Shown here piece by piece: positions 6,321 through 33,375 of a stretch of 50,464 nt of DNA. The position numbers and the translations under genes are program-made. Every line of letters begins with the position of its first letter. Position 1 is the stretch's first letter. The notes under the pieces were generated by a model that ran no database searches, was not told where the DNA came from, and worked only from the letters and a program-made list of their open reading frames with translations. This stretch comes from Lachnospiraceae bacterium (GTDB taxonomy: Bacteria; Bacillota; Clostridia; Lachnospirales; Lachnospiraceae): positions 1 to 50,464 of the forward strand of contig JAFUYB010000053.1 in NCBI GenBank assembly GCA_017470735.1. The letters run 5' to 3'.

Positions 6321-6418
6321 TATTCCATGAAAAATAGATGACCTGCTGTCGGCTATTGACGATGAATATCCGTTTTACGCAGTAAAAACACCCGTCAATA
6401 ATTATATCAAATTATAGA

Positions 6419-6736: not shown

Positions 6737-6751
6737 GGAGGTGGATCCATC

Positions 6752-8549: not shown

Positions 8550-9281
8550 TCATTTTACGGATTTTATGCAAACATAGACTATCTCCGGGCAGTTGTTGAT
8601 CCGTGGAATCCAAGTCGTGTTGGAAAGCCCACGGCTGATGACCATACTTCCGTAGCTGCCTGTATGGATGCCAGCAGTGTATTTTGGAAAGAATCCCTGC
8701 CCGGGGGCGTATAGACCCTGCCCGCCGACACGGATCTGTCCGCCATGTGCATGACCGGAAAAGACAAGATCAATACTGCGATAGGCAAGTTTTGGATCCT
8801 GAAGCATAAAATATTCCGGTCTGTGGGAGAGCAGTATCTTGTATCCGTCGGACTTCTGAAATTTCGACAGCCAGATATACTCCGAAGTCTGATAGGAGTA
8901 CGCCGCTGCCGATAACCCGCCAAGATAAATACTGTCTGTCAGTTCTATATATCTATTATCAAGTATCATAATATCCGTCTTTTCGATATCTTTTAGCTGC
9001 ACTGCGGGAGCGGCACACTCATGGTTTCCATAGGAAAGATAGGTCGGGGCAATCGCCGCACATTCATTCAGAAAATCCAAAGTGTTACCATATGAGACAT
9101 GGCGGTAGTGCCTGTGCCGGACATAGCCGTTGACCAGATCCCCGGCAATACAGAGGCTGATCCCAAGTGCATTTGCAATCACTTCTAGCCGGTCTATTTT
9201 TGGGATTCTGGCACCGATTTCATATTTTTTTATCATGGAGAGGTTAATATCGGATTCCCGGCTTAAATCCTCTTGGGACAT
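8550..9281 (-). CDS. Chimeric XRE-type HTH fused to a truncated metallophosphoesterase
   Basis: The HTH (MSQEDLSRESD...RLEVIANALGISL) continues upstream in frame to 9347 as ...NIAGRIKLFRRLRG, but no ATG/GTG/TTG is available there. The C-terminal part carries GNHE and SGHAHGGQIR motifs, while the N-terminal DxH/GDxxD metal motifs are missing. Confidence 0.5.
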   Translation of the reverse strand: MSQEDLSRESDINLSMIKKYEIGARIPKIDRLEVIANALGISLCIAGDLVNGYVRHRHYRHVSYGNTLDFLNECAAIAPTYLSYGNHECAAPAVQLKDIEKTDIMILDNRYIELTDSIYLGGLSAAAYSYQTSEYIWLSKFQKSDGYKILLSHRPEYFMLQDPKLAYRSIDLVFSGHAHGGQIRVGGQGLYAPGQGFFPKYTAGIHTGSYGSMVISRGLSNTTWIPRINNCPEIVYVCIKSVK

Positions 9282-10043
9282 CCCACGCAGTCTGCGGAAA
9301 AGTTTGATCCGTCCAGCTATATTCTTTGAATGTATATAAAATAGAGCTTAATAAAGGTTTGATTTACATCTGGACAGCAATACAAAGAGATGTTCTACTA
9401 GGTCTGTGATGTATTTGGGAATCAAGTCCGATTATGATTTGGAGATTATGAAGGCTGGAGAAGATCTGTTTGATATCAATATCCTCCAATGACGCGCCAT
9501 TTTTATATTTTCGGGTCATGGGATTATAAAACAGGGTTTTATAACCGCCAATCTGTGCATAATTATGAGATGTCCTTGAGCACGGAAAAAGCAATATTTC
9601 TGTCAGTTACGACCAAACCTTTTATTTTCAGCTAGATTTGTAATTTGATTTTCATAACTAAAGAAAGTATCTGCCATAAATTCACCATTGCTTTCAAAAA
9701 GAAAGAGACCTACAGGCCTCCTTCCCGGTCGCAGGCATCTCGAGTTTCTGCAACCTGATCACTTCAAACATTCTATGATATATCGCCATTTGTGTCAATA
9801 GAATTATTATAGTCGCCAGGGTTCTTTCTCATGATTCTTGCAACAGCGATAGTGGAAGAACTTGTTCTTATTAGCACGGATGAGCGTATGAGAAAAGAAG
9901 AATTACAATGCCAAGGTGAATTGCTGAAGGACGGCAGGATGGAAGAATAAAAGCAATTGTATAAAAATAGATATTATAGAAATAGCCTGAGCGGGATGCC
10001 CAGGCTGTTTTTGTGTGGGATATGTTTTGTTTTTACTGTTATG

Positions 10044-18643: not shown

Positions 18644-18727
18644 TGCGGAGGATGGGACTTGAACCCACACGACATTGCTGCCACTAGATCCTTAGTCTAG
18701 CTCGTCTGCCAGTTCCGACACCTCCGC
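18644..18727 (-). tRNA. tRNA-Leu (class II, long variable arm); the anticodon loop as read is CUAAGGA, i.e. anticodon AAG
   Basis: Reverse complement is GCGGAGGTGTCGGAACTGGCAGACGAGCTAGACTAAGGATCTAGTGGCAGCAATGTCGTGTGGGTTCAAGTCCCATCCTCCGCA. T-loop is GGTTCAAGTCC. A34 is unusual for bacteria and needs checking. Confidence 0.75.
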
Positions 18728-18805
18728 ATTCGTCCGTTGAACGCAACGACTATATTACCAAAGACCCGGAAAAAAGTCAAGAAAGTTGCGGTCAGAAACA
18801 AATTT

Positions 18806-18836
18806 TTTTTCACAAACGCGAAAATTATGCTATACT
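18806..18836 (+). promoter_or_regulatory. Candidate promoter for the HD-GYP gene (extended -10 TGcTATACT)
   Basis: TGCTATACT at 18828-18836. The -35 is weak. Confidence 0.3.
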
Positions 18837-18875
18837 AATACGGCAACTTTGCAGGATTGGCATGGGAGAAAAGTT

Positions 18876-19970
18876 TTGGCGATCAAACAAAAGCGTGTCA
18901 GTATTCGGAAATTGGAAGAAGGGATGAAGCTCGGTCAGCAGATCAGGGATGCGACAGGACGGGTCTTGATCCAGCAGGGGACACAGCTTGAAGGGCATTA
19001 TATCCAGTACTTGGAGGAGCATGGCATCAACTCCATCATCATCCAGGAGGGTGAGGAGGACGGACCGCAGGTGCAGCTTTCGGACAAGGCAAAGCGCGCC
19101 GTTGAGCGGACGAGGGTGGATGATCCGGTCAAGGTTTCGCTGCGTGAAGATGTCAAAAAGCGTGTCGGCGAGGGCGTGCAGTTTTTATTTGACAATACGG
19201 AGTCCAAGAATTTTTTGGAGACGACGAACAATGTTTCCGAGGAATTGACGCGGGCGATCACCAAGTATGACGCTGTGGCGATCGATATTGCGCAGCTTAA
19301 AGTTTCAGATGAATACACATTCAAGCACAGCGTGGATGTGGCTTCCCTGTCGATGATCATTGGCAAGAAATACGGGCTGAAGAGGGACGAGATCCGGGAG
19401 ATCGGTATTGCGGGACTGCTGCATGATGTCGGCAAGTCCAAGATCCCAAAGCAGATTTTAAACAAGCCTGACCGTCTGACCGATGAGGAATTTCATCAGA
19501 TGAAGTTCCATTCCTTGTATGGTTACAAGATTTTGGAAGAAAACAACGGATTTTCCGTCGGCATCAAAAGCGGCGTGCTCCAGCACCATGAAAAGATGAA
19601 TGGAAAGGGTTATCCGATGTCGGTCGGCGGAGCGAAGATCCATCCGTTTGCGCGGATCATTTCGGTTGCGGATGTTTACGACGCATTGGTCACGGAACGC
19701 CCTTATAAAAAAGGTTTTCCGAAGAAGGACGCGATCGAGATCATTATGACGATGACCGATGACCTGGATATGAAAGCGATGAAGAGCTTTCTGACGAGCG
19801 TGATCCTCTATCCGGTGGACAGCATCGTCAGGCTTTCAAACGGCGAATACGGCAAGGTCGTTGAAAACAATCCCGATTACCCATTACGCCCCAAAGTCGT
19901 GGCGACCGAGACAGGCGCTGTGTACGATCTGAACAATGATGTCCACTGCCAGAGCATTGTGATTCTATAA
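18876..19970 (+). CDS. HD-GYP domain c-di-GMP phosphodiesterase
   Basis: HSVDV...LLHDVGKSKIP...HHEKMNGKGYP...VADVYDALVTERPYKKGF. TTG start at 18876 after GGGAGA. An alternative ATG lies at 18924. Confidence 0.8.
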   Translation: MAIKQKRVSIRKLEEGMKLGQQIRDATGRVLIQQGTQLEGHYIQYLEEHGINSIIIQEGEEDGPQVQLSDKAKRAVERTRVDDPVKVSLREDVKKRVGEGVQFLFDNTESKNFLETTNNVSEELTRAITKYDAVAIDIAQLKVSDEYTFKHSVDVASLSMIIGKKYGLKRDEIREIGIAGLLHDVGKSKIPKQILNKPDRLTDEEFHQMKFHSLYGYKILEENNGFSVGIKSGVLQHHEKMNGKGYPMSVGGAKIHPFARIISVADVYDALVTERPYKKGFPKKDAIEIIMTMTDDLDMKAMKSFLTSVILYPVDSIVRLSNGEYGKVVENNPDYPLRPKVVATETGAVYDLNNDVHCQSIVIL

Positions 19971-20069: not shown

Positions 20070-20154
20070 GCACGAGTGGCGGAATTGGCAGACGCGCAGG
20101 CTTCAGGTGCCTGTGGTCGTTAAGATCGTGTGGGTTCAAGTCCCACCTCGTGCA
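20070..20154 (+). tRNA. tRNA-Leu (anticodon CAG)
   Basis: GCACGAGTGGCGGAATTGGCAGACGCGCAGGCTTCAGGTGCCTG...TGGGTTCAAGTCCCACCTCGTGCA. Anticodon loop is TTCAGGT. A T-run follows and no CCA is encoded. Confidence 0.85.
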
Positions 20155-20206
20155 TTTTTTGTGTATAATTGAGAAAACATTTCAAAACGACAAGGGAGGA
20201 ATGATT

Positions 20207-21232
20207 ATGTCATTATTCAAGAGCAAGCAATTCAGTTCGGTGATCGAGTGGGCGGATCCCGAGGAGGGAGTGCTGTTTCACCGATTTGACAATATCGAGC
20301 TCAAAAAAGGGTCGGTCTGCATCCTGCGCCCGGGGCAGGATGTGATCATTGTCAGCAACGGCGAGGTCAACGGCGTATTTACAAAGGACGGACGCTACAA
20401 TGTGGAGTCGGACATTATTCCGTTTCTGTCTACGGCTGCGGGCATTAAGTTCGGCTTTGACAGCGGACGGCGCATTGAAGCGGTTTTCGTCAACACCAAG
20501 GATATTTTGCAGAACTGGGGCACGCGCAGTCCGATCAATATCGAATTTCCGGGACTGCCGGGAGGCATACCGGTACGGGCAAACGGCAATTTTGTCTGCC
20601 ATGTCGATGAGGAGAAATACCCGGTTCTTGTCGAAAACATCGCCGGTATCCAGACCGAATTTACGGTAGAGGATCTGCGGGAACGGTTGCTCGGATCGAT
20701 CGAACAGTCGCTGATGCAGCATATTTCCCAGCTCGCGGGGACGATTCAGACCCTGCAGTCACAGGTGAGTACGATTTCGGCGGAGATTCTGCCGGAGATC
20801 GATGCGGAGACATCAAAATACGGCATCCGTATCCGTGATTTCAAGGTGATGAGCTTTTCCTATCCCGAAGGCGTGCAGGAGAAGCTCGAACAGGCCGCGG
20901 GTATCGGATTGCTGGGGAACAACATCGCGGCTTACCAGCAGGTGGCGCTGGCAGACGGCTTGCGCGAAGGCGGCGGAGCTGCAGGCATGGCAGGCATGTT
21001 TGTCGGTGCTCAGGCAGGCGCGCAGATGGGACAGAATTTCGTGGCAGGCGCAGCCCAGAACGCGGCAGGCGCAACTCAGAATGCAGTAGGCGGTGCCGGA
21101 ATGGGCGCAGCACAAAACGCGGCGGGAGCGGCACAGCAGCCGTCAGGCGGCGGTTTCTGCATTAAGTGCGGGACAGCGCTTCCGGCAGGCGCGGCATTCT
21201 GCCCGTCCTGTGGTAACAAGGTCGGTGCGTAA
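20207..21232 (+). CDS. SPFH (band-7/flotillin-like) domain protein with a Gly/Ala/Gln-rich tail and a C-terminal zinc ribbon
   Basis: AGGGAGGA RBS. The ORF-track start at 20150 overlaps the tRNA, so it was trimmed to the ATG at 20207. The C-terminus reads ...GGGFCIKCGTALPAGAAFCPSCGNK. Confidence 0.65.
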   Translation: MSLFKSKQFSSVIEWADPEEGVLFHRFDNIELKKGSVCILRPGQDVIIVSNGEVNGVFTKDGRYNVESDIIPFLSTAAGIKFGFDSGRRIEAVFVNTKDILQNWGTRSPINIEFPGLPGGIPVRANGNFVCHVDEEKYPVLVENIAGIQTEFTVEDLRERLLGSIEQSLMQHISQLAGTIQTLQSQVSTISAEILPEIDAETSKYGIRIRDFKVMSFSYPEGVQEKLEQAAGIGLLGNNIAAYQQVALADGLREGGGAAGMAGMFVGAQAGAQMGQNFVAGAAQNAAGATQNAVGGAGMGAAQNAAGAAQQPSGGGFCIKCGTALPAGAAFCPSCGNKVGA

Positions 21233-21299
21233 GCGTCGGGCAGTGTTTCACATCATTGGTATTTGAAAATGGCAGTTGACAAATGGGAGGTGGCGGTCA

Positions 21300-22826
21300 A
21301 TGAGGTCATGCCCGAATTGCGGAGGCGGTCTGAAATTTGACATCGGATCGCAGAAATTAAAATGTCCAAGCTGCAGCAGCATGTTTCCGGTGGGGGAGAT
21401 ACCGGAGGTGCGGGCGGCAAAGGCGGACGGGACGATGGATGCGATGATCTTTTCCTGCCCGCAGTGCGGCGGGGAGGTCTGGTCTACATCAGAGACAGCG
21501 GCAGGCTTCTGTTCATTCTGCGGCGCGTCCGTGCAGCTTGAAGGCCGGATGGCGGCGGAAAAGATGCCCGAGCAGATCATTCCGTTTCAGATTACCGGAA
21601 AGGAATGCGGCAAACGGTTCCGCGAGCATGTGAAAAAATATTTCTTTTCGCCGTCCGATTTGAGCCAGGAAAACGCGAAAATGGAATTCCGCGGGATCTA
21701 TATGCCTTATTGGGATTATACGGTGCACCAGGAAGCGCATATCGACCGGGAATACAGGGATGAGCATCGCAGCGGCGATTACCGGATCGTCCGGTACTAT
21801 GATTTTGACTGGGATCTGAATGAGGATATCGAAGCGATCCAGCACGATGCGTCGCGCTCGTTCAATGATGATGTCGGAGTGGCGATCGCGCCGTTTGAAC
21901 CGGAAAAACGGGTGGCGTTTGACTCCGGCTATATGGAAGGCTTCTATGGCGATGTGGCGGATACGCAGTGGGAGGATTACGCCGATTTCGCGATTGATGA
22001 AGCGGTTGGTTATACGGAGCGCGCGATCCGAACCAAGACAAAGGGTACCCGTACGGACAAGGGACCGACCGGCAATGATGAGTTTCATGGCCGGATTATA
22101 AAGCGTCAGCTTTCGCTGTTTCCGGTCTGGTTTTTGTCATACCGTTCCGGCAACCGGGTCGCGTATTCGGCGGTCAATGGACAGACGGGAAAGGTACATG
22201 TGGATCTGCCGGTGTCGCCGGCCAAATTCGCGGGACTGACTGCGGCGATCACGGCGGTACTGTTTGTGTTCTTTTTGCAGCTTTTTACTCCATCGCCGCA
22301 GACGGATGTCGGGATCGCGATGATCATGTCGATTGCCGCGTCCGCAATTTTTACGGTGATGACGCAAAAGATCCTCGAACGGGATGAACTGCTGGAAAAG
22401 AAAGAGAAAAAAGAGGGAAGCAATCGAAAAAAAGGACTGATTTTAGGCTGCACAGGCAGCTGCCTGATCGTCATTGTCCTTTTCGTATCGATTCTTGTGG
22501 GTTTGGTTTTCTTTATTGAAATAGCGGCAGCAGTGATCGCGCTATGGGCACTGGTCCGTTATTTGCAGAGGAACAAGCTGTTTGTCAAGGCAAACGGACA
22601 GGGCGTGTTCCCGTCGCCGCTTCTGGCATTTGCCGCGGCGCTTTTGGGCATTGCCGTGGTTTTGTGGAATCCGGTTTCCGATTTCTGGTACTACGGCATC
22701 ACGGCGCTGGCAATGGCAGCGGCCGCGATCTCTCTCGGTTCGATCATTGCGCTGCGGAATATGCTTTCGACGAGGCGCTTGCCGCAGTTTGACACGCACA
22801 AAGGAGGTGATCACCGTGCAAGGTAA
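21300..22826 (+). CDS. Multi-zinc-ribbon membrane protein (hypothetical)
   Basis: GGGAGGTGG lies 6 nt before the ATG. There are three CxxC pairs in the first 90 aa (CPNCGG, CPSC, CPQCGG, CSFCG). About six TM helices are predicted in the C-terminal half. Confidence 0.6.
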   Translation: MRSCPNCGGGLKFDIGSQKLKCPSCSSMFPVGEIPEVRAAKADGTMDAMIFSCPQCGGEVWSTSETAAGFCSFCGASVQLEGRMAAEKMPEQIIPFQITGKECGKRFREHVKKYFFSPSDLSQENAKMEFRGIYMPYWDYTVHQEAHIDREYRDEHRSGDYRIVRYYDFDWDLNEDIEAIQHDASRSFNDDVGVAIAPFEPEKRVAFDSGYMEGFYGDVADTQWEDYADFAIDEAVGYTERAIRTKTKGTRTDKGPTGNDEFHGRIIKRQLSLFPVWFLSYRSGNRVAYSAVNGQTGKVHVDLPVSPAKFAGLTAAITAVLFVFFLQLFTPSPQTDVGIAMIMSIAASAIFTVMTQKILERDELLEKKEKKEGSNRKKGLILGCTGSCLIVIVLFVSILVGLVFFIEIAAAVIALWALVRYLQRNKLFVKANGQGVFPSPLLAFAAALLGIAVVLWNPVSDFWYYGITALAMAAAAISLGSIIALRNMLSTRRLPQFDTHKGGDHRAR

Positions 22827-23775
22827 ACAGAAAAAGCAGGGAAGAACGCCTTTTGCGCGGCTGGAATCAGGCAGGCACGCCCGCTGTGCGGGATGGAAGA
22901 TGAGAATGGCATTTTTCGGTCTGCTGGCGGTTCTGTTGTGTGCGATAGTGCCGGGCAACGCGGTCTGTGCCGCGGAGGAGCTGACGGAAACGGCGGACGA
23001 ATTAAACGGTGCGTCAGATGAACTGTCTGATCCGGCGGACGGGACTGACGAAGCGTACGGAGATGCGGATGCGCAGGAGCAGAGCATCGAACTGGCATAC
23101 AAGAGCGACAAGAGCGGGAAGACGCTGGTCGTAGAGGACGGGGAGAACCTGTTTTCCGATAGTGAGATCCGGCAGTTTATAGAATCCGCCTCAGGCGTGC
23201 TGGAATATGCGAATGTCTATATCGTGACTTCAAGCGAAGAAAATTACGAAGGGTACGCGAAACGGCTGATTGACGATACCTTTGGCAACGGCTCGGATTC
23301 GACCTTGTTTATGATCAACATGAATCCGCGGAAGCTCTATATTTTCTCGGAAGGACAGGCGAAAAAGACACTGACGAAGGACAAGGCGCGGACGGTCACC
23401 GACAATATTTACCGTCAGGCGAGCCTCGGAGCGTACTATGCCTGCGCCGAGAAAGCGCTACGCCAGGAAGCGACGCTGCTTTCGGGAGGACGGATATTGG
23501 AGCCGATGAAGTATATCGGCGATTTCTTCCTCGCGTTTATGGTCGCCATCCTGCTGGTATTCGGGCAGACATTCTGGCTGCGTCCGAGGGAGAAGCGGGA
23601 AGTGATCGCCGGCATCGACGAAGCGGTGCTGGCAGCGATCGCATCGGGCATTGCGTTCAGCTTCAGCCGGGAGGAAAAGATTTACGATCCGCCAAGCAGC
23701 AGTGATTCCGGCTCCGGAGGAGGAGGCGGATTCAGCGGCGGTGATTCTGGTGCCGGCGGCGGGCATTCGTTTTAA
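22816..23775 (+). CDS. TPM-domain (YgcG-like) secreted/membrane protein
   Basis: AAGGAGGTG + 6 nt + GTG at 22816, overlapping the previous gene by 11 nt. There is a signal peptide. An acidic linker is followed by the TPM fold, one TM helix and a C-terminal SGGGGGFSGGDSGAGGGHSF tail. Confidence 0.6.
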   Translation: MQGKQKKQGRTPFARLESGRHARCAGWKMRMAFFGLLAVLLCAIVPGNAVCAAEELTETADELNGASDELSDPADGTDEAYGDADAQEQSIELAYKSDKSGKTLVVEDGENLFSDSEIRQFIESASGVLEYANVYIVTSSEENYEGYAKRLIDDTFGNGSDSTLFMINMNPRKLYIFSEGQAKKTLTKDKARTVTDNIYRQASLGAYYACAEKALRQEATLLSGGRILEPMKYIGDFFLAFMVAILLVFGQTFWLRPREKREVIAGIDEAVLAAIASGIAFSFSREEKIYDPPSSSDSGSGGGGGFSGGDSGAGGGHSF

Positions 23776-23787
23776 ACGGATGTCCGC

Positions 23788-24858
23788 TTACAGTTTGCGC
23801 ATACGGTCAGGATTGATCGCATAGGTCATTGCAGTTTCCCGCGTGATGCGCCCTTCGTGGTAAAGCTCCTTTAAGCTGTCGTCCATCGAGCGCATCCCGC
23901 CGCCGGTTCCCGAATAGATCATACCGTCAATCTGGTAGATCTTGTTGTCGCGGATCATGTTGCGGATCGCGGGCGTGACGGTCATGATCTCAAAGACCGG
24001 CACGATGCTGTTGTCGATGGTCGGCACGAGCTGCTGCGAGACGACGGCATGCAGCACGGTCGAAAGCTGTACCGCGATCTGGTGCTGCTGGTTTGCCGGG
24101 AACACATCGATAATACGGTTGATCGTATTGGCGGCACCGATCGTATGCAGCGTGGACAGCAGCAGGTGTCCGGTTTCCGCGGCCGTCATTGCGACAGAAA
24201 TCGTTTCAAAATCACGCATCTCACCAAGCAGGATGACATCGGGACTTTGGCGGAGCGCCGCGCGCAGGGCGGCGACATAGCTTTCGGTATCGACGACAAC
24301 CTCGCGCTGGCTGACGATGCTTTTTTTGTGCCGGTGCAGATACTCGATCGGGTCTTCAAGAGTGATGATGTGCGCTTCCCGCTTTTCGTTGATATCTTCA
24401 ATGATACACGAAAGTGTCGTGGATTTGCCCGAGCCGGCCTGGCCGGTCACGAGCACCATGCCGTTGGAGAAATTGCCGAGGTCGATGATCTCCTGCGGGA
24501 TGTGCAGCTTTGACGGATCGGGCAGCTCAAAGCTGATGATACGCATAACCGCGGACAATGCGCCCCTCTGTTTGTAGGCGCAGACACGGAATCTTGAGAA
24601 TCCGGGGATCGCAAGGGAAAAGTCGTCGTCGCCGCGGTCGATCAGGATGCGGATATCACGGTCGGCAAGGCGGTAGATTTCCCGCAGCAGTTCTTCCGTC
24701 TGCGCCGGGAATACCTTTTCTCCGCCGTCCATATTGATCACGCCGTTCTTGCGGAAGGACACCGGTATACCTGCGACGATGAACACATCGGATGCGCGTT
24801 CCCGTACTGCCCGCTCTAAGATCTGCTCGATTCTCGTTTTCTCTTCCATAGTAGTCAC
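23788..24858 (-). CDS. pilT: PilT-type type IV pilus ATPase (retraction-ATPase family)
   Basis: Walker A (GQAGSGKST). PilT signature AIRNMIRDNK. 356 aa. Confidence 0.8.
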   Translation of the reverse strand: MTTMEEKTRIEQILERAVRERASDVFIVAGIPVSFRKNGVINMDGGEKVFPAQTEELLREIYRLADRDIRILIDRGDDDFSLAIPGFSRFRVCAYKQRGALSAVMRIISFELPDPSKLHIPQEIIDLGNFSNGMVLVTGQAGSGKSTTLSCIIEDINEKREAHIITLEDPIEYLHRHKKSIVSQREVVVDTESYVAALRAALRQSPDVILLGEMRDFETISVAMTAAETGHLLLSTLHTIGAANTINRIIDVFPANQQHQIAVQLSTVLHAVVSQQLVPTIDNSIVPVFEIMTVTPAIRNMIRDNKIYQIDGMIYSGTGGGMRSMDDSLKELYHEGRITRETAMTYAINPDRMRKL

Positions 24859-24888: not shown

Positions 24889-25350
24889 TTACCGTATGAC
24901 ATTTACGGTATCGTCGCCCTCCCAATTCTTGGTGGCGATTGTTTTAAACTCCGAAAACCGGTAGGCATTGGTTTCTTTGTCGTATTTAAAGACAACGGAC
25001 AGCGCCTGGATATCGGAAAGCTCATACTGGCGGCTGATTTTTGTTTCTAGTGTATCCGGGGTGGCATTGTCGGCTGTATCCGCTGCATCCGGTTCTGTGC
25101 CGGCTGCATTATTTCCACTGCTTGCCGCCGCCTTTCGGTTCAGCTCCGCTAAGTCCGTCTCCGCCTGGTTTGCCGCGGCATAATAGGCGTCGCGGCTGCT
25201 TTTGGTCAGTCCTGCCTGATGCCATTCGTTTTCCGCCTGCACGAGTGCGATCGCGGAAAAGGTGAACAGGCACAAAATCAGGAACACGACTAGAAGCAGT
25301 GAGATGCCGATATTCGCGGGTGGCGAAGCGTTGTTGCGTTCTGTGTTCAT
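24889..25350 (-). CDS. Small membrane-anchored protein (pilus-associated, hypothetical)
   Basis: A single N-terminal TM helix. The gene is co-directional and tightly spaced within the pil-like cluster. Confidence 0.45.
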   Translation of the reverse strand: MNTERNNASPPANIGISLLLVVFLILCLFTFSAIALVQAENEWHQAGLTKSSRDAYYAAANQAETDLAELNRKAAASSGNNAAGTEPDAADTADNATPDTLETKISRQYELSDIQALSVVFKYDKETNAYRFSEFKTIATKNWEGDDTVNVIR

Positions 25351-25369
25351 AAAAAGAAGCTCCTGTCAC

Positions 25370-25834
25370 TTATGGCGATGGTTGCTTTGCGTGATTGACG
25401 GACAGACTGTACACCTCGTCGCCATTCACATTGCGAAAGGTCAGATCGGCGTTTAGCATGTCGTCCGTTTCCGTCAATTGTACCGTCTCGACCTGCGCGA
25501 GCGTGCTCTTTGCCGTCGGCAGGTAATTGTCGTTAAAGTAGATCGAGATTTCATAGGGATCGGATTCCTGCGAAAGCTCCGCGTATTCATATACCCGCCC
25601 GATCTGCTGGGATACTTCCTCGATCGAGTTGGAGGTCCGTACCAGCTCCGCCGTGTCCGAGCAGATGTTCAATGCGTGGTTCAGCGCCTTGGCGCGTTCG
25701 CTCTGGATGTGCGCCTGCACGAAAATGGTAATGCACACGGACGCCGCCAATGTAAAAAACAAGATCGCGACGACAAGCTCCATCAGAAAGAGAGAGGAAG
25801 CAGACGCTCTTTTTCGCTTTAATTCCGCATTCAT
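25370..25834 (-). CDS. Prepilin-like protein (type IV pilin / pseudopilin candidate)
   Basis: The N-terminus KRKRASASS|LFLMELVVAILFF has Glu at +5 from the putative cleavage site, with Ser instead of the canonical Gly at -1. The stop overlaps the next gene's start by 4 nt. Confidence 0.5.
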   Translation of the reverse strand: MNAELKRKRASASSLFLMELVVAILFFTLAASVCITIFVQAHIQSERAKALNHALNICSDTAELVRTSNSIEEVSQQIGRVYEYAELSQESDPYEISIYFNDNYLPTAKSTLAQVETVQLTETDDMLNADLTFRNVNGDEVYSLSVNHAKQPSP

Positions 25835-26415
25835 GGTGTTCCTCCGGTTGATGTATCCGTGCTCTGGCCTGTTGCCGCAGCTGTCCCCGGTGTCTTGCTG
25901 CTTTCCGTGAAGCTGTTATCGACAACCAGATCCCCCGCATACACGCCGACCCGCGCTGTCGCCGTCTGTCCGTCGTTGTCCGTGCAGGAGAAAGACAGCA
26001 GGCGGTCTCCGGCGACCTCTACATTGAAATCCGCGATCTCGAGGATCGCCTGGCCGGAGGATGCGGTGAAATTCGCTTCCATGCCGTCCTTGATGAACAG
26101 CTCCCTCAACGCGCCGTTTGCCGCGTAAATATAAGTAGCGTACCAGTCATCGCCGAATTTTTCCTTCATCACGACTGCCTTAGAACCGTCAAAGGTCGTC
26201 ACGCCGATCCGCCCGTTGTCGTGCTGGTGGATCTTCTCGCGGATGTAGGAGAGCGAGGTGTTGGCGTTGTAATTCATGGCCGCGTCGGCAACCGTCCGCT
26301 GGTATACCTGCGCCGCGAAAAGAATGACGATCAGCGCAGAAAGTGTGAATGCAAAAAAAATCATAACAGGAAATACAAATTCAATTTGCCGGTTTTTTGA
26401 AACAGGTTTCCGCAT
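25831..26415 (-). CDS. Membrane-anchored protein (pilus-assembly accessory, hypothetical)
   Basis: N-terminal TM helix with a Thr/Gly-rich C-terminus. Confidence 0.45.
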   Translation of the reverse strand: MRKPVSKNRQIEFVFPVMIFFAFTLSALIVILFAAQVYQRTVADAAMNYNANTSLSYIREKIHQHDNGRIGVTTFDGSKAVVMKEKFGDDWYATYIYAANGALRELFIKDGMEANFTASSGQAILEIADFNVEVAGDRLLSFSCTDNDGQTATARVGVYAGDLVVDNSFTESSKTPGTAAATGQSTDTSTGGTP

Positions 26416-26434
26416 ATTGTTACTTTCCTTGGTG

Positions 26435-26902
26435 TTACCTTAAAATAGTGCGGTTTTCGGCGCGTTCGAGGATATTATTCTTCATCTCCTCTTTCTTTTC
26501 TAACACCGCATACACGGTCTCCTGCGCGAAGCCGATTGCCTTTTGCGCAGGCGTGCGGGTGTCTTCGGGATGCAGCTCGATGATCGTCACATCGGGAATA
26601 ATGTTCTGCGCCCGCACCTGATAATCCACATAAAACAGGTCTTCATTGTAATACAGTCCGTAATCCGAGCGGATGGCCTCAAGGGATTCCGGATAATGTC
26701 CGGTCGTGGCGTAGCAGTAGACGATGTCGCGGGAGAGCGCGTCGGTCAGGCTTTCCTTCTGTCTTTTGGTGGAGCCTTTGCTTAAAGAACCCGTGCCGAC
26801 CACAAAAAGCACGATGACCATCGTAAACAGCAGCAGGGTCGGAAGCAGTGAGGCAAGCGTGCCGGTATGCCGTTTGGTTGTGATATAAGAAAACCGTGCC
26901 AT
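26435..26902 (-). CDS. Membrane-anchored protein (hypothetical)
   Basis: N-terminal TM helix. No canonical prepilin motif. Confidence 0.45.
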   Translation of the reverse strand: MARFSYITTKRHTGTLASLLPTLLLFTMVIVLFVVGTGSLSKGSTKRQKESLTDALSRDIVYCYATTGHYPESLEAIRSDYGLYYNEDLFYVDYQVRAQNIIPDVTIIELHPEDTRTPAQKAIGFAQETVYAVLEKKEEMKNNILERAENRTILR

Positions 26903-26970: not shown

Positions 26971-28107
26971 TTACAATGTCGCCATAATCCCAAGCAGCGG
27001 GAACATTACGGACAGCAGGATCACACCGACCACGACCGAGAGCACGACGATCAGCGCGGGCTCTAAAACCGCCAGCCGGTTGGAGATTTTTGTGTCTATT
27101 TCATCTTGGTAAAGCGTTGCGATCTGCCCCATGACCTGGTCGAGCGAACCGGTCTTGTTGCCGATTGAGGTCAGGCGCGAATACACGCCGGTAAAAATGC
27201 TCGTCTCGTGAAGCGCGTCGGAAAGCGATGTGCCCTCCAGCATCTTGGCGCGGCACTTGTCAAGCTTCTTGCCAAAGTCTTTATCTTCGTTCAATTCCGC
27301 CACCAACTCAAAGCCGCGGTCAGGCGAGAGTCCGCTCCGCAGGATCAAAGACATGCCGTCCGCAAAACGGCAGGAGGCGATGCGGTCGTTCAGTTCCCTT
27401 GTCGCCTTGAACCGTCTTGTAACTCTTCTCGATAAGGCTTTTCCGGCATCGGTCTTGACGCAGAAGAACGCAAAGATAATGATGACGGCGAGCAGGATTA
27501 CAAACAGCAGCGCGTAGGTGCTGATGAAGTTGGACGCTGCCATCAGTCCCGCGGCAAAGCCTGTCATTTCGGTGCCGAGCTGGCGGAATACCTGGTTGAA
27601 GATCGGCATCACACGCACCAGCAGAATGATAATGACCGCAATGATCATGCCCGACATGATCAGAGGGTAGGTGACCGCGCTCTGGATCGACTGCCGCAGC
27701 TGTTCCTCGCGGCTGTAATGCTCTTCAAGCGCTTCCATGACCTCATCGAGATTGCCGGTTTCCTCGCCGATCGCGACCATATGGATCATATAGTCGGGAA
27801 AAGCTTCCGTAGCGGCCAGGCCGACCGAAAGCTGCCCGGTCAGATGCACGGTCTCCACGATGATCTCGACGATTTGCCGGTCCGCGCCGGTGGAGAAGTC
27901 ATCCTCCATCATTTCCACGCCCTCGATCGAGGAAATGCCGGACTTTAAGATCAGAGCCATCTGCCCGCAGAAATAGGACAGCTCCAGATAAGAGAGCGGA
28001 CGGATTTTTTTCCGGCGGCTCTTTTTGGGCTTCTTTGCCCGTGGCTCCTTTTTTGGTTTTTCGGTTTTTATTTTTGCTCTTTTTCGTGGCATAATCTTTC
28101 CCGTCAT
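26971..28107 (-). CDS. pilC: PilC/GspF-family platform protein with an unusual ~45-aa Lys/Arg-rich N-terminal extension
   Basis: Two T2SSF repeats (GISSIEGVEMM...; GLSPDRGFELV...). The N-terminus reads MTGKIMPRKRAKIKTEKPKKEPRAKKPKKSRRKK. Confidence 0.75.
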   Translation of the reverse strand: MTGKIMPRKRAKIKTEKPKKEPRAKKPKKSRRKKIRPLSYLELSYFCGQMALILKSGISSIEGVEMMEDDFSTGADRQIVEIIVETVHLTGQLSVGLAATEAFPDYMIHMVAIGEETGNLDEVMEALEEHYSREEQLRQSIQSAVTYPLIMSGMIIAVIIILLVRVMPIFNQVFRQLGTEMTGFAAGLMAASNFISTYALLFVILLAVIIIFAFFCVKTDAGKALSRRVTRRFKATRELNDRIASCRFADGMSLILRSGLSPDRGFELVAELNEDKDFGKKLDKCRAKMLEGTSLSDALHETSIFTGVYSRLTSIGNKTGSLDQVMGQIATLYQDEIDTKISNRLAVLEPALIVVLSVVVGVILLSVMFPLLGIMATL

Positions 28108-28166: not shown

Positions 28167-29096
28167 TCAATAGGTATATTTTGTCGTGTAATTGCTGCCG
28201 TCTCCGACATAATCCTTCACCGATTCGTCGTCGTTGTTGGCGGCAAGCGTCGGATCCATCAGAGACCAGTTCTGGCCGTTAAACTGGATGATGTCGTCCA
28301 CCCAGCCCTGCTCCGCCAGATAGACGGAAATCCATGCGTGGTAGGCCGTGCCCGAATAGCCGACCTCCAGCTTGGTCGGGACGCTCTGGGAACGCAGCAT
28401 GGCGCTCATGACCGAAGCGTAATCGAAGCAGATGCCGGTCTTGGATTCTAAGGTCGCGTCCACATCGGGGATATAGTTGACCGAAATGTCGGCCGCCTTT
28501 TCATTGTCATAGGAAATATTTTCGGTGACATATTCGTACACATTGGTCACGAAATCCAGGTCATCCGAGGAGTCATTGGAAATATCGACGCCCAAAGAGA
28601 CCGCGGCGGAATCCGGTGTGTAATTGACATACTGGTTCGGATAGAGGTACGGGCGGAATTCGTCCGTCAGTGCCACATCCACGGGCTGTGAAAGCCCAAC
28701 GGAATACATATCATCCGAAACGTGCTCCAGCACATCGATCTGGTACGAACCGTCGCCGCCGGTCAGAGGCAATGTCTGGTAATCGCCGATCGGCAGGGGA
28801 TACTGATACAAAGTGCCGTCGGGATTCGTGATCTGTACCTGGATCTTGTCCGCGGCACCAGTGTATTTGACCATCACATAGCCGTCTGCCGTGTTGGAAG
28901 CATCGATGGAAATGGTATCGCCGCCGTAGACCACCTCGCCGGAGGCTTCCGGCATCAGCGTGGATGTCGTCGTCTCGCGTGTGCCGCCGGATGAGTCGTT
29001 GCTTTTGGCTTTGCCGCCGCCTTTGGAGCATCCTGAAAGGATGAGCGCGCCGGAAAGCGCAGTGACGCAAAGCAGTGATAAAAATTGTCGTTTCAT
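28167..29096 (-). CDS. Transglutaminase-like cysteine-protease-fold lipoprotein
   Basis: Lipobox LILSGCS. Catalytic triad context: GICFDYASVM, YHAWISVY and LMDPT. Confidence 0.7.
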   Translation of the reverse strand: MKRQFLSLLCVTALSGALILSGCSKGGGKAKSNDSSGGTRETTTSTLMPEASGEVVYGGDTISIDASNTADGYVMVKYTGAADKIQVQITNPDGTLYQYPLPIGDYQTLPLTGGDGSYQIDVLEHVSDDMYSVGLSQPVDVALTDEFRPYLYPNQYVNYTPDSAAVSLGVDISNDSSDDLDFVTNVYEYVTENISYDNEKAADISVNYIPDVDATLESKTGICFDYASVMSAMLRSQSVPTKLEVGYSGTAYHAWISVYLAEQGWVDDIIQFNGQNWSLMDPTLAANNDDESVKDYVGDGSNYTTKYTY

Positions 29097-29151: not shown

Positions 29152-30153
29152 TTATTTATGGTTTACGACCGCGTGCAGGACATTGCCGGTGCGGTCAGGT
29201 ATGTACACATTCAGGTAATCATCCGGATACTGGAAGATCAGCTCACCGATGATCGCGTTGTAGGATGCAGGTTCAACCTTGTTGCCCGCCGAATCGAGGG
29301 CGTATATCCGCTTCCAGTTGACGCCGCTGCCCGTATCCTTGATGTACAGATACACCTTGTCGTCCACGGTCTTGCTCGAAACCAGTTCCGGCACATCGCG
29401 GTCTACGCCGGTCACATTGGTTGTCTCGACGACCGTACGCTTGTTGAGGAAGTTGACCGTCACATCCATCTGCCCATTGGCAGTCGGCAGAATATAATAG
29501 CTCTTTTTTCCGTCCTGCAGGACAGGCATGACCTTGTCGCCGATCTGCGCCGTCGCCGTGTCCACGGGAATGAACGAATCGATAGTGAAAGTGTATTTCA
29601 ACTGCCCGCTTTTCGCTGCCGCCTTGTCGATGTCGAGCGTGTATTCCGGCGTGATCGTAAACAGCGGAATCGCGGCAAAGCAGAGGATGATGAAAAACAC
29701 AAAATACCGCTGCAATGCGTGTCTCTGCATCCGGTATTCATTGTACTCGATCAGTGTCACAAGCGGAATCGTGTTTGGTTTGCGTCCTTCCTCATAAAAG
29801 ACGAATTCTAAAAGCCGCTCGGCATCGTCCAGAGAAAAATCCGGTATTTTCGGACGGCCTTTGGGCGGGACAATGTCCATCGCATCGGCAAGCACCTCGC
29901 ACATTTCGATGTTCATATTGTTCATCCACTTGATGAAATTCTCCGACCGGTTGAGCCGGCTGATCGAGTGCAGGGCGTTTAAATAGATATCAAGGAGCGT
30001 ATCCTGCACTAACGCCTTGTCCCAAAGATAGCTGTATGCCAGCTTGTACTGCTCTTCGTAAGTAATGGCAAAAAGACTCGCAAAGGCATTGCTGTCTTGG
30101 AGTCTGGCATCTTTCACAAGGGATGCAATATATTTGAAATCGATACTTGCCAA
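29152..30153 (-). CDS. Membrane protein with an N-terminal sigma-70 region-2-like domain only (no region 4), one TM helix and a C-terminal extracytoplasmic domain
   Basis: The first ~90 aa (LVKDARLQDSNAFASLFAITYEEQYKLAYSYLWDKALVQDTLLDIYLNAL...FIKWMNNM) match the ECF sigma region-2 pattern. The TM helix is YFVFFIILCFAAIPLF. Confidence 0.55.
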   Translation of the reverse strand: MASIDFKYIASLVKDARLQDSNAFASLFAITYEEQYKLAYSYLWDKALVQDTLLDIYLNALHSISRLNRSENFIKWMNNMNIEMCEVLADAMDIVPPKGRPKIPDFSLDDAERLLEFVFYEEGRKPNTIPLVTLIEYNEYRMQRHALQRYFVFFIILCFAAIPLFTITPEYTLDIDKAAAKSGQLKYTFTIDSFIPVDTATAQIGDKVMPVLQDGKKSYYILPTANGQMDVTVNFLNKRTVVETTNVTGVDRDVPELVSSKTVDDKVYLYIKDTGSGVNWKRIYALDSAGNKVEPASYNAIIGELIFQYPDDYLNVYIPDRTGNVLHAVVNHK

Positions 30154-30195: not shown

Positions 30196-31128
30196 TTACA
30201 ATGCCATCCGCTGGCGGAACAGCTGTACGCGTGTCCGCTTCGTGTCGAGCATCTGCAGCTTCTGCGCGCCGATCAGCGCGATGTCCTCCTGCGTGAAGGT
30301 CACGGAAAGAGGCAGGGGTTCGAGCTGTTCTTCTTCGATCAGCTCCTCAAACGGAATGATTTCCTGCAGCAGCTTTTCATTTTCGCTCTGTTCTTCTTCG
30401 ACAGCGGCTTCGCCGCGGACTTTCTCGGTCAGACGGTTGGATGAAAGAGCAATCAACCGCGTGATCGAGGTGATATCGTCCCGCGCGGCATAGGCCACGC
30501 CAAATTCGTACTCGATGTGATGGTTCTTGGTATTGGCATTGTAATCCCGCACTTTATCCGCCAGGCGGTCCAAAAAGACCGCGAGATGCAGATCGGAGCT
30601 TTTTTCATATAATATAATGAAGCGGTTGCCGCCGTTGCGTCCGACGATGCATTCGTCCAGTGAAGCCATCGACAGAATGATCGAAAAGGCGCGGATCAGG
30701 TTGTTGCCCTCAACGCGTCCATAGTTGGAGTTGACCTCTTTTAATGAAGTCAATTCGATCATCGCGGCGCCCATCTCGCCCGGAATGTCCTTGTCAGCGT
30801 ATTCATCGATGATCGAGTCGATCGAATAGCGGTTGGCGATCCGCGCGACCGAGTCGGTATTGGCGGCTGCGGTCAGGCTCGCTAAATTTTCGTTCTGTTT
30901 TGAGTATAGGGAGAAATCGACAAAGATGCAAGCAAAACTCAAAAAAAGTGATACCCAAAGGAAAATACACAGATGCATGACATTTTTATCCGTGGTGATC
31001 TGCTGGTAGATATCGCTTGCGATGACGATTTGGTAGAAGCAGACGCCTGCGAAGGCCATGAAGACGACGAGTTCTAAGGTTTTCATTTGGTCGAATTTTT
31101 TCATTTGTACACACACCTTTCTCAGCAC
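30196..31128 (-). CDS. Membrane protein with a degenerate GGDEF domain (GGNRF in place of GG[DE]EF)
   Basis: Two N-terminal TM helices. DSVARIANRYSIDS...RVEGNNLIRAF...IVGRNGGNRFIILYE. Confidence 0.6.
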   Translation of the reverse strand: MLRKVCVQMKKFDQMKTLELVVFMAFAGVCFYQIVIASDIYQQITTDKNVMHLCIFLWVSLFLSFACIFVDFSLYSKQNENLASLTAAANTDSVARIANRYSIDSIIDEYADKDIPGEMGAAMIELTSLKEVNSNYGRVEGNNLIRAFSIILSMASLDECIVGRNGGNRFIILYEKSSDLHLAVFLDRLADKVRDYNANTKNHHIEYEFGVAYAARDDITSITRLIALSSNRLTEKVRGEAAVEEEQSENEKLLQEIIPFEELIEEEQLEPLPLSVTFTQEDIALIGAQKLQMLDTKRTRVQLFRQRMAL

Positions 31129-31177
31129 AATAGAACTTTAGCTGTCTACTCCACACATAGTAGACTCTTGCATCAAC

Positions 31178-32509
31178 TTAAATGCCGATGGCGATATCGA
31201 GGAAAAATTCGCTGTCGGTTGTCGAAATTCGTAAAGTTCCGTTATATTTATCGACCGTTTCGCGGATTGACTGAAGACCTATTCCGTGATGTTTTTCTTT
31301 TTTTGACGAAAAAGTGGGATTTTCGCCGGTTGTATCTAAAATCAACTCACCGTCATAGCTGTTTGAGGAGACGATGTAGAGCATCGAATCGTTCTGGATG
31401 CGGATGGAGATCGAAAATTTCCGCGCGGCGACAGGGGCGTCCTTGGCGGCGTCGATCGCGTTTTCCATGATGTTGCCGAGCAGGGAACAGAATTCCGGAT
31501 CGCTCATGGGAAGCGGACGGGGCAGGTCGACCTGCAGGCTGGCGATCACGCCTTCTTCGGCGGCGCGGGTCTCGTAATAATTCAGAACGGCGTTGATCGC
31601 CGGATTTTTGCAGTATTTTTGCATGATCGTGCCGGCGCTTTCTTTGGCGTATTCACGGATGTAGCTGCGCAGACCTTCGGTATCGCCGGAGGCCGCAAGC
31701 TGTGAGAGCAGGTGCAGCGTATGCTTGAAGTCGTGGCGGGCGTGGCGGTCGGATTCGATCTGTGACAGCAGGCTCTTGTACTGCAGGCTTTGGATATCAG
31801 AAAGCCGCTGCGCCTCTTTGTACTCGCTGATGTGAATGTATTCCAGCAGGTAGGAGTAAAAGATCGAGGTCAGGTAAGCGTAGAGGACGAACAGGGAGAC
31901 CGAGAAAAACAGGTAGGTGCCGTATTGCGAATAGGCGTGCAGGACACGGTAATCATTCGGCAGCATCGCGATATTCAGCCCGAGAAACAATATCGGTACG
32001 GAAAGCCAACCCATCCAGAGGCTTTCCGGCGTATAGTGAGGTGAAAAAATACGGCTGTCCCATTTTGCGACGACGAAATACGCATAGAGGCAGAGCGCGA
32101 TATTTAAAACCAGGTGCATCGTAAATTCATTTACCCCGAAGGACATCGTGACATGCTTCGGGTGAGCCGCCGCATCGATCAGGCTGGTGATATTTGCCGG
32201 AAACATCATCAATACCACTGCCCACAGGTAGACGGTCAGGCTCCGCGCGGGCGTCAGATCGACGGAGAAGAAAAATATCGGAAAATAAATCGCGAAAAAG
32301 ACCAGAAGCGCCCGGTTGTCGATCAGAAAGGTGTGCGTCTGTATCAGTGACATTGCCGGTACGCAGGCGAGGCTGAAAACGGCGCAGTCAAGCACCAGTA
32401 CCGTCGTGGAAATACGCAGGGCAGGTTTTGCGATGATGTAGGCGCAGAAAAAGACACAGAGCAGCTCAAATAAGGCGGAAAGGCTGTTGTAATCGGAAAA
32501 ACCGTTCAT
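31178..32509 (-). CDS. Sensor histidine kinase of the AgrC/LytS-type (HPK10), partner of the LytTR regulator
   Basis: Polytopic N-terminus. H-box RHARHDFKHTL. HATPase G-box HHGIGLQSIRE. Confidence 0.8.
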   Translation of the reverse strand: MNGFSDYNSLSALFELLCVFFCAYIIAKPALRISTTVLVLDCAVFSLACVPAMSLIQTHTFLIDNRALLVFFAIYFPIFFFSVDLTPARSLTVYLWAVVLMMFPANITSLIDAAAHPKHVTMSFGVNEFTMHLVLNIALCLYAYFVVAKWDSRIFSPHYTPESLWMGWLSVPILFLGLNIAMLPNDYRVLHAYSQYGTYLFFSVSLFVLYAYLTSIFYSYLLEYIHISEYKEAQRLSDIQSLQYKSLLSQIESDRHARHDFKHTLHLLSQLAASGDTEGLRSYIREYAKESAGTIMQKYCKNPAINAVLNYYETRAAEEGVIASLQVDLPRPLPMSDPEFCSLLGNIMENAIDAAKDAPVAARKFSISIRIQNDSMLYIVSSNSYDGELILDTTGENPTFSSKKEKHHGIGLQSIRETVDKYNGTLRISTTDSEFFLDIAIGI

Positions 32510-33237
32510 TATTTCTGCCCCTCCCGAAGCTGGTCAAACATGTAATTCTGCCATTGCTGCTCGATCTGTCCCGCTTCCCTTACCTTGATCGGGAATGAGG
32601 TGCCGTCGGTCAGGGAGCAGCTCCCTTTTTCGATGCGGCGGATCTGGTCCATATTGACGACGATCCCTTTGTTGATGATCAAAAAGCGCTTGTCCCCGTT
32701 GACAGACCCGAGGAATTCTTTGGTGGTCATCCGTGTCGTATATTCTTCGCCGCTGCGCGCTTTGATATGCAGGTAATGTCCCTGGCTCTGCGTCCAGACC
32801 AGTTCGGAGAGCGGCAGGCGGATTTCCTGGCGGTTGGACAAGAAAGAAATGTACTTTGTCAGCTCAGGAAGCACTTTTTCGGCATCCGCTAAAAGCGTCG
32901 TCACCCGCTCCTGGGAGATCGGCTTGACGAGATAATCAAAGGCGTGGAAGCGAAACGCTTCGGGCATATTTTCCCTGCTTGTCGTGCAGAAAATGATCAT
33001 CGTGCTTTCGGAGGTGCCGCGGATCTTGCGGGCAAGCTCCAGCCCGTCGGTTTCATCGATGTAGATATCCAGAAATACGATCTGGTAGGAATCCGGGGAA
33101 AACGCCGATAAAAAGGAAGCGCTGTCAGAGAACCCGTCGACCGTCATGGAGATGCCGAGACTGTCCGCGGACAGCGCAAGCAGGTCGCGCAGTGTGCGGA
33201 TAGCTTCTATTTCGTCGTCTACAACAGCAACTCGCAT
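32509..33237 (-). CDS. LytTR-family response regulator
   Basis: AAGGGGGA RBS + ATG at 33237. Receiver domain (VAVVDDE...FLDIYIDE) plus LytTR domain (LSELVWTQSQGHYLHI...KRFLIINKGIVVNMDQI). Confidence 0.8.
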   Translation of the reverse strand: MRVAVVDDEIEAIRTLRDLLALSADSLGISMTVDGFSDSASFLSAFSPDSYQIVFLDIYIDETDGLELARKIRGTSESTMIIFCTTSRENMPEAFRFHAFDYLVKPISQERVTTLLADAEKVLPELTKYISFLSNRQEIRLPLSELVWTQSQGHYLHIKARSGEEYTTRMTTKEFLGSVNGDKRFLIINKGIVVNMDQIRRIEKGSCSLTDGTSFPIKVREAGQIEQQWQNYMFDQLREGQK

Positions 33238-33375
33238 GGCAATCCCCCTTTTTGCGTTCACATTTTGCCAGAGCCTTCGCCATAGCCGTCCAGGCTGTGC
33301 TGAACCGTTTCCGCTATGGAGAATTAAATGCTATTATAATTCATTTTCAGGGGAAAGAAAAGTGGTGGGAATATT

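Follow-up and report, generated by a model that had tools for sequence, protein, structure and literature searches.

A degenerate GGDEF membrane protein, labelled here GG*, was analysed together with its genomic surroundings in a stretch of 50,464 nucleotides (nt) from a Lachnospiraceae bacterium (assembly GCA_017470735.1, contig JAFUYB010000053.1), the whole of which is referred to as the window. The open reading frame (ORF) 30196..31128 on the minus strand, which encodes it, was confirmed in the window and belongs to a minus-strand operon with the following order: a LytTR response regulator and a GHKL kinase, which make up a two-component system (TCS), GG*, a fusion of region 2 of an extracytoplasmic function (ECF) sigma factor with a membrane protein labelled X (sigma2-X), a transglutaminase-like (TGase) lipoprotein, a PilC protein, four small proteins and a PilT-family ATPase. 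GG* and the pilus genes were found to be kept apart by two further genes, and GG* is not a stand-alone pilus regulator, being the first gene of a conserved module, GG*-ECF sigma-X. An initial annotation had placed it between the TCS and the structural genes and suggested a regulatory or effector role; the regulatory position in a pilus-like operon stands, although the immediate neighbour, sigma2-X, had been overlooked. The protein probably starts at the ATG at 31104 (30196..31104, minus strand; 302 amino acids, aa), because an AAAGGTG Shine-Dalgarno sequence lies upstream of it and the N-terminus MKKFD is present in every homologue; starting instead from the GTG at 31128 would make it 310 aa long.

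The GGDEF-fold domain of GG* comprises residues 84-232 (30409..30855, minus strand), as delimited from Pfam, the alignment to the solved cyclase DgcR, Foldseek and the family profile. In particular, the Pfam GGDEF profile (PF00990) matched residues 89-234 with E=4e-14 (53.1 bits, cutoff 23.8), TIGR00254 gave 39.5 bits (threshold 37.4), and DgcR was matched by the GG* family profile with E=5.8e-15. Moreover, the AlphaFold2 (AF2) model, for which an alignment of 25 relatives was used as input, showed a predicted local distance difference test (pLDDT) score of 80-88 across the GGDEF-like domain, and its top 50 PDB matches in Foldseek were all GGDEF structures, with a TM-score of 0.73 when normalised to the T. 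maritima GGDEF domain 4urg. Both transmembrane helices of the initial annotation were recovered by hydropathy and AF2. Helix 1 spans approximately residues 10-31 (31012..31077, minus strand; residues 3-29 in AF2), and helix 2 approximately residues 45-67 (30904..30972, minus strand), the latter being seen in the alignment as well. An N-in topology is suggested by the basic N-terminus and the conserved K8-T9 ahead of helix 1; K8, T9 and L12 are invariant, and L49, W50, F57, D63 and F64 of helix 2 are conserved. In the AF2 model, helix 2 is extended by a short stalk that leads into the GGDEF-like domain, a layout like the one of dimeric membrane cyclases.

Following the domain, an acidic linker (residues 233-268; 30301..30408, minus strand) with a net charge of -11, predicted to be disordered (pLDDT <50), leads to a basic C-terminal helix (residues 269-302, FTQEDIALIGAQK...KRTRVQLFRQRM; 30199..30300, minus strand), which was assigned from alignment, AF2 and charge. 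The linker is specific to the lineage of the window and variable, as reflected by alignment gaps, and the helix is conserved only in close TCS-linked relatives. The acidic C-terminal tail described initially is thus real in GG* but not a feature of the family, most members of which are of about 230 aa and have no tail. Among other family members, the disordered tails of P0015, P0016, P0027, P0028, P0036-P0038 and P0059 end in a common motif, DY[RK]Y[ST]xEE...DY..YREA[IV], which differs from the basic C-terminal helix of GG* in the window.

The active site of GG* was compared by alignment to DgcR (6zxb and 6zxm), using the residue numbering of PleD, and its conservation was followed in two sets: an alignment, A1, of GG* with 25 relatives, down to 35% identity, and a wider table of 178 sequences aligned to the hidden Markov model of the family. 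A profile search of 1.8 billion representative proteins gave 113 clusters of the GG* family at E<1e-30. The A-site hairpin R156-N-G-G-N-R-F162 (30619..30639, minus strand) was found to be degenerate in the sequence itself, in the alignment of 25 relatives and in the wider table, with both motif acids (E370 and E371 in PleD) replaced in GG* by N160 and R161 in a GGNRF motif. Furthermore, the position of the first metal-binding Asp (PleD D327) is occupied by E117 in GG* and varies among E, D, L, S, T, R and K in the family; the guanine-binding D344 is N134, and K332 and N335 are retained as K122 and N125, respectively. No variation was seen in A1 at R156, N157, G158, G159, N160 and F162 or at N125 and G133-N134, while the motif of the wider family reads RN[GS]GN[KRVEQ]F. 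Its third position was N in all 25 aligned relatives and predominantly N among the wider family of about 230 aa, and the equivalent of E371 was R, K or V. Position 134 was N in close relatives and D in the more distant RNGGNEF group, and the nearest canonical relatives were proteins of 340-360 aa carrying DLN..K..N..GD..RNGGDEF. The motif stays unchanged in relatives as distant as 35% identity, so it is a selected property of the family and not the result of recent decay or chance, and the RNGGN hairpin is under selection together with K8, T9, L49, W50, F57, D63 and F64 of the transmembrane helices.

These results agree with the initial annotation in that GG* has a GGDEF fold with a degenerate A-site, RNGGNRF, supported by Pfam, Foldseek and the DgcR alignment, and no canonical active site was found. 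They also agree with its view that cyclase activity was unlikely: with E370/E371 changed to N/R, D344 changed to N and no conserved equivalent of D327, such activity is to be regarded as very unlikely from the alignments. An active diguanylate cyclase with an unusual motif would account for a protein that has kept its GGDEF fold, its stalk helix and an architecture like that of membrane cyclases, but a GGNRF motif devoid of both acids, in a family in which the first metal-binding Asp is not conserved, makes this explanation barely credible. To our knowledge, Asn at the third position of the motif has yet to be described for any active cyclase.

A different role in cyclic di-GMP (c-di-GMP) signalling, namely sensing via an I-site, had been proposed for GG* and was not upheld. 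In the alignment to DgcR (6zxm), which followed the check put forward with that proposal, the I-site R-K-S-D falls on L149-D150-E151-C152 (30649..30660, minus strand), and none of the 178 family sequences had RxxD at this position, where C152 is nearly invariant. A c-di-GMP receptor binding its ligand at a canonical I-site, such as PelD, PopA, YdaK or PssE, would be in keeping with a membrane protein of degenerate GGDEF type whose gene lies, as in the case of YdaK and PssE, in the same operon as the machine that it would control, and with the presence of c-di-GMP enzymes in the window; however, LDEC in place of RxxD and the absence of RxxD from the 178 sequences render it highly improbable. 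The enzymes in question, which are apparently intact and encoded as a cluster 10-17 kb from GG*, are a GGDEF-EAL protein of 878 aa (RIGGDEF, EALVR; 10789-13425, plus strand), a Reg_prop/Y_Y_Y-GGDEF protein of 1298 aa (RMGGDEF; 13484-17380, minus strand) and an HD-GYP protein (HHEKMNGKGYP; 18786-19970, plus strand). The RxxD I-site is absent from both cyclases of the window, i.e. the 878-aa and the 1298-aa proteins. Moreover, no riboswitch or other known RNA tying the operon to c-di-GMP was found, as Rfam at the gathering threshold gave only two tRNAs in the window.

The residues that are retained around the A-site raise another explanation, in which GG* would be a nucleotide sensor whose vestigial half-pocket (N125, G133-N134, R156 and the GG hairpin) binds a guanine-type ligand without metal or catalysis and passes the signal to sigma/X or to the pilus machine. 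The candidate ligands would be c-di-GMP, GTP, pGpG, a nucleoside or another dinucleotide. The invariance of N125, G133 and R156, the restriction of position 134 to N or D and the intact c-di-GMP enzymes encoded 10-17 kb away are consistent with such a sensor, and some degenerate GGDEF domains, such as that of Caulobacter PdeA, reportedly bind GTP at the A-site. Nevertheless, neither metal ligand is left (N replaces E370, and D327 has no conserved counterpart), R, K or V stands in place of E371, there is no I-site, and the conserved residues also belong to the core of the GGDEF fold, so they may be structural. In addition, most family members are 225-245 aa long and end at the equivalents of window residues 227-229, before the Lys/Arg phosphate clamp of cyclases (PleD K442/R446); GG* of the window carries K228 and R230 close to where the clamp would be expected, in a stretch where the alignment is ambiguous. 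Overall, a nucleotide sensor was considered rather unlikely, while being the alternative to be taken most seriously.

The gene order around GG* was then compared among related Clostridia. A scan of one genome per species gave 143 relatives of GG*. The 80 loci that were retrieved come from Lachnospiraceae, Anaerovoracaceae, Oscillospiraceae, Faecalicatena contorta, Mediterraneibacter, Dorea, Roseburia, [Clostridium] symbiosum and others. The nearest genome matches were metagenome-assembled genomes from deer rumen with 80-82% identity, and the window is most likely derived from a rumen Lachnospiraceae. The proteins of the window and of one distant locus (L003) were mapped onto the fetched loci, requiring at least 1.5 kb of downstream sequence for the sigma and X counts and at least 6.5 kb for the cassette counts. 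A sigma-like gene was located 5-200 nt after GG* in every locus scored (77/77), and X was also present downstream in 75 of these 77. On the other hand, TGase, PilC and PilT followed the module in 45 out of 59 loci, and in the other 14 no pilus cassette lay within 9 kb of the GG*-sigma-X triad. Because the triad also occurs without a nearby cassette, the tightest link of GG* is with sigma and X and not with the pilus cassette. In L003, a GG* of 231 aa, 42% identical to that of the window, is followed by a complete ECF sigma of 186 aa, which passes the Pfam thresholds for region 2 and r4_2, and by an X of 237 aa, all of them in a single tight operon with 22 nt from X to TGase. Distant members with RNGGNEF retain the order GG*-sigma-X-TGase-PilC-DUF4860, and the sigma/X order was not seen at the single nearest canonical RNGGDEF relative examined.

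The neighbour of GG* in the window, sigma2-X (29152..30153, minus strand; 333 aa), was characterised by BLASTP against sigma and X of L003, NCBIfam, AF2 and Foldseek. X denotes here a membrane protein with a single transmembrane pass, which has a short helix in the cytoplasm and two immunoglobulin (Ig)-like ectodomains. As the N-terminus of the 333-aa protein matches the L003 sigma (46% identity over 85 aa) and the protein also matches the L003 X (34% identity over 225 aa), it is sigma region 2 fused to X with loss of region 4. The sigma-factor profile matches of NCBIfam are confined to residues 9-86, and in the layout ECF sigma region 2, the only sigma region present (residues 1-85), is followed by a cytoplasmic helix, a transmembrane helix and two ectodomains of the Ig/fibronectin type III (FN3) kind. 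The AF2 model (pLDDT 87) presented four N-terminal helices, a further cytoplasmic helix, a long transmembrane helix and two beta-sandwich domains, and the Foldseek matches of the ectodomains were Ig/FN3 tandems. The same fusion was found in another related locus (L001), and the database search yielded full-length fusions of sigma (regions 2 and 4) with X, of 395-426 aa, as well as free X proteins. Sigma and X thus occur in three forms, i.e. as separate proteins, as a full fusion and as a fusion without region 4, and this natural series provides strong indirect evidence that the two act together. No natural fusion of GG* itself with sigma or X was detected among the 178 family proteins, the long members of which carry instead disordered tails or a second, more degenerate GG* domain. 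The latter is the case of P0022, P0033 and P0034, with two tandem GG* domains of which the second reads RNGGCKF, RNGGMGF or RNSGTGF, which hints at a dimeric working of the domain.

The loss of region 4 was not restricted to the window, as it was noted in 10 of the 77 loci, and an adjacent sigma with both regions 2 and 4, absent from the window, was present in the other 67. Eight of the 10 loci (L008-L012, L050, L066 and L078) had a LytTR regulator and/or a kinase immediately upstream of GG*, while L017 and L018 were exceptions, showing a rearranged layout with no TCS directly upstream. The LytTR regulator was an orphan, with no kinase, in L050, L057 and L066, and L057 had too little downstream sequence to be scored for sigma. 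In the window, the LytTR response regulator is the first gene of the operon (32509..33261, minus strand; 250 aa; Pfam Response_reg and LytTR), and it is followed by the membrane GHKL histidine kinase of AgrC/LytS type (31178..32509, minus strand; 443 aa; Pfam HATPase_c_5, E=5e-19, and NCBIfam).

Taken together, the reading that we favour, with a probability of about one half for the model as a whole, is that GG* is a pseudo-cyclase that works by protein contacts within a membrane switch made up of sigma and X. Its observed basis is the fold, the loss of the A-site, the absence of an I-site, the degenerate motif throughout the family, the constant gene order and the fusion series; from these we infer physical binding, its direction (activating or inhibiting) and a handover to the TCS. 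GG* would be expected to be a dimer, as membrane cyclases are, which fits the existence of tandem-domain variants and the layout of helix 2 and stalk, shared with dimeric membrane cyclases. Its conserved transmembrane hairpin would pair with the transmembrane helix of X, and the surface of the invariant RNGGN hairpin would bind sigma region 2 or the cytoplasmic helix of X. By these contacts, GG* would set the membrane retention of sigma, either as a co-anti-sigma factor or as an antagonist of the anti-sigma factor, the exact contact and its sign being much less certain than the model as a whole. In the lineage of the window, where sigma lost region 4 and became fused to X, transcriptional control would presumably have passed to the newly acquired LytTR TCS, and GG* and sigma2-X would be retained in the membrane as a complex joined to the pilus-like machine, with sigma region 2 possibly surviving as the part that GG* or X holds.

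Several results weigh against this pseudo-cyclase model. To begin with, the sigma of the window, having no region 4, cannot act as a sigma factor, so a purely sigma-regulatory role would not be the whole story there. Furthermore, no ECF-type promoter was found upstream of GG* or of separately transcribed cassettes, and a sigma regulon was not definable; the promoters upstream of the module and of the cassettes had only sigmaA-like extended -10 boxes (TGnTATACT). X showed no recognisable anti-sigma domain, with no sequence match in Pfam or PDB, including the solved anti-sigma factors, and its putative function as anti-sigma factor is proposed from gene order and the sigma-X fusions. Finally, the guanine-contacting N125, G133-N/D134 and R156 are still conserved, which also fits a retained binding of a base or nucleotide.

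The remaining genes of the operon encode the pilus-like cassette, which is conserved in many gut and rumen Clostridia. In the window, it starts with the TGase lipoprotein (28167..29096, minus strand), which has a signal sequence ending in LSGC (Pfam Transglut_core, E=3.6e-18), followed by a platform protein of PilC/GspF type (26971..28107, minus strand) with two T2SSF repeats (Pfam, E=5.5e-48; NCBIfam). Next are four small proteins with N-terminal hydrophobic helices (24889..26902, minus strand), namely a 155-aa protein, a DUF4860 protein (194 aa) and proteins of 154 and 153 aa, of which the 154-aa one bears a prepilin-like motif, ASS|LFLMELVVAI, with Glu at +5. The cassette ends with an ATPase of the PilT/PilU family (23788..24858, minus strand; 356 aa; TIGR01420, 410 bits against a cutoff of 319; Pfam T2SSE), which is its sole secretion ATPase. 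The core of a type IV filament is present, i.e. a platform protein, a secretion ATPase and a pilin-like subunit, and "pilus-like operon" is a fair description, yet the system is atypical. A PilB-type ATPase and a prepilin peptidase were not among the annotated ORFs of the 50-kb window or of the related cassettes, and they may be encoded elsewhere in the genome, while no gene for PilM/N/O was found in the window. DUF4860 was not mentioned by any paper in the literature searched.

This composition could also be explained without any transcriptional switch if GG* and sigma2-X were a structural or assembly part, forming a membrane alignment or platform subcomplex that replaces PilM/N/O. Such an explanation is in line with a cassette that has PilC, a PilT-type ATPase and pilin-like proteins and with the lack of genes for PilM/N/O, PilB and prepilin peptidase in the window, and it would also account for the retention of GG* and sigma2-X in the lineage of the window despite the loss of sigma region 4 and for the tight operon of L003, with its 22 nt between X and TGase. 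However, 14 of the 59 loci have the triad with no cassette within 9 kb, some of them beside adhesin or signal-peptidase genes, and the partner in most species is a complete ECF sigma passing the Pfam thresholds of both region 2 and region 4. A structural part of this kind was consequently judged to be distinctly unlikely.

Additional genes were noticed around the triad in the related loci. A gene of signal peptidase I (S26) was near the triad in 26 of the 59 loci, comprising 10 of the 14 with no cassette and 16 of the 45 with the cassette; this count covers the related loci. Examples are found at 8944-9866 of L003, 393-4228 of L006, 6502-7038 of L091 and 8067-8588 of L050, and in L003 and L006 the gene is accompanied by proteins of 63-67 aa with a single transmembrane helix. 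The peptidase could serve for the processing of X or of secreted substrates. Moreover, large adhesin-like genes are located beside the triad in L006 and L091, which were fetched separately.

Degenerate GGDEF proteins are a known kind, and GG* was compared with those closest to it. YdaK of B. subtilis and PssE of L. monocytogenes are membrane degenerate-GGDEF receptors of c-di-GMP encoded in exopolysaccharide operons. They resemble GG* as membrane-anchored degenerate GGDEF proteins of Firmicutes within the operon of a cell-surface machine, but they keep an RxxD I-site that binds c-di-GMP and are linked to a glycosyltransferase, while the GG* family has no I-site and is linked to a sigma and a pilus-like system. 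GdpS, a membrane GGDEF protein of the Gram-positive Staphylococcus, is reported to function irrespective of c-di-GMP synthesis; its profile (NF047872) matched GG* weakly (E=1e-6, 28 bits against a cutoff of 400), and it has a 5TMR-LYT sensor domain where GG* has a hairpin of two transmembrane helices only. With regard to the modules of ECF sigma and single-pass anti-sigma factors, the likeness lies in a sigma gene followed by that of a membrane protein that has one transmembrane pass, a short N-terminus in the cytoplasm and an ectodomain, whereas X has no recognisable anti-sigma domain and the sigma of the window is a region-2 stub fused to X. FimX of Pseudomonas and Xanthomonas also has a degenerate GGDEF domain in the regulation of type IV pili (PMC5595344). 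However, it is soluble, binds c-di-GMP via its EAL domain and acts on the PilB ATPase, while GG* is anchored to the membrane, has no EAL domain and is accompanied by no PilB. The closest functional analogy to the mechanism proposed for GG* is RmdB of Streptomyces venezuelae, whose inactive GGDEF domain binds sigma-WhiG and antagonises or displaces the anti-sigma factor RsiG (PMC13232838), so that a non-catalytic GGDEF domain serves as a protein surface toward a sigma/anti-sigma pair. Nonetheless, RmdB is an actinobacterial GGDEF-EAL phosphodiesterase with a sigma of FliA type and genes that are not adjacent, while GG* is a stand-alone GGDEF protein with two transmembrane helices and an ECF sigma encoded next door, its interaction with sigma being only proposed. 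A GGDEF-fold neighbour or third partner was not mentioned in the main text of the ECF classification paper (PMC7826278).

In the literature searched, no conserved RNGGN family of pseudo-cyclases linked with an ECF sigma and a membrane partner, and usually with a cassette of PilT type, came up. A broader proposal, which is put forward tentatively and has the odds somewhat against it, is that this GGDEF-fold pseudoenzyme would be the obligate third partner of an undescribed switch of ECF sigma and membrane protein in gut and rumen Clostridia (at least 143 species-level genomes), either controlling or built into a pilus-like apparatus without PilB and powered by PilT. The GGDEF fold would have been recruited as a binding module for sigma or anti-sigma factor, and in the window the sigma would have decayed and the LytTR TCS taken over. 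The usual treatment of degenerate GGDEF proteins is to annotate them as cyclases or to take them for c-di-GMP receptors, and the GG* family represents a third outcome, with a degenerate motif under strong selection and a genetic tie to a sigma. If the contact between GG* and sigma is true, sigma-binding GGDEF surfaces would be extended to Firmicutes, in a new three-component type of ECF signalling. Furthermore, the analysis marks an uncharacterised pilus-like system, commonly found in Lachnospiraceae and other Clostridia of the gut, which comprises a TGase lipoprotein, PilC, a PilT-type ATPase and DUF4860 and pilin-like proteins. GG* genes should be counted neither as cyclases nor as I-site receptors in censuses of c-di-GMP proteins.

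The non-coding parts of the operon were also inspected. A terminator-like hairpin and a TATAAT box upstream of the LytTR regulator gene were read by eye and were not listed by the consensus scan, in which the number of promoter and terminator sites in the operon was equal to that of shuffled sequence. Between the kinase gene and GG*, a hairpin GUCUACU-AUGUGUGG-AGUAGAC was located at 31139-31160 (minus strand), and the hairpins of L008 and L009 have other stems with the same loop, AUGUGUGG. A GTGTGTG core was the only part conserved in all six TCS-linked loci, and it recurs at the Shine-Dalgarno sequence, while ATGTGTGG occurs exactly once in the window. A conserved RNA hairpin at this place was rejected, as RNAalifold gave no consensus structure for the six loci; the intergenic hairpin could be a protein-binding site.

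Finally, other features of the window were recorded. Positions 1-10000 had a lower GC content (39-46%, compared to 50-55% elsewhere) and contained fragments of genes and remnants of mobile elements, namely a truncated Fe-alcohol dehydrogenase, the N-terminal fragment of an integrase, a fragment of a UDP-glucose dehydrogenase, RCC1 repeats and IS66 Orf2. This part looks like a decayed or mobile region. The two tRNA genes were situated at 18644-18727 (minus strand) and 20070-20154 (plus strand). Converging on the pilus-like operon, a set of plus-strand genes (20150-23775) encodes an SPFH/Band-7 zinc-ribbon protein, a zinc-ribbon/DUF7351 protein of 516 aa and a TPM-domain protein with a Gly/Ser-rich C-terminus. 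As the second tRNA gene overlaps the listed start of the SPFH/Band-7 ORF (20150), the true start of this ORF is probably further downstream.

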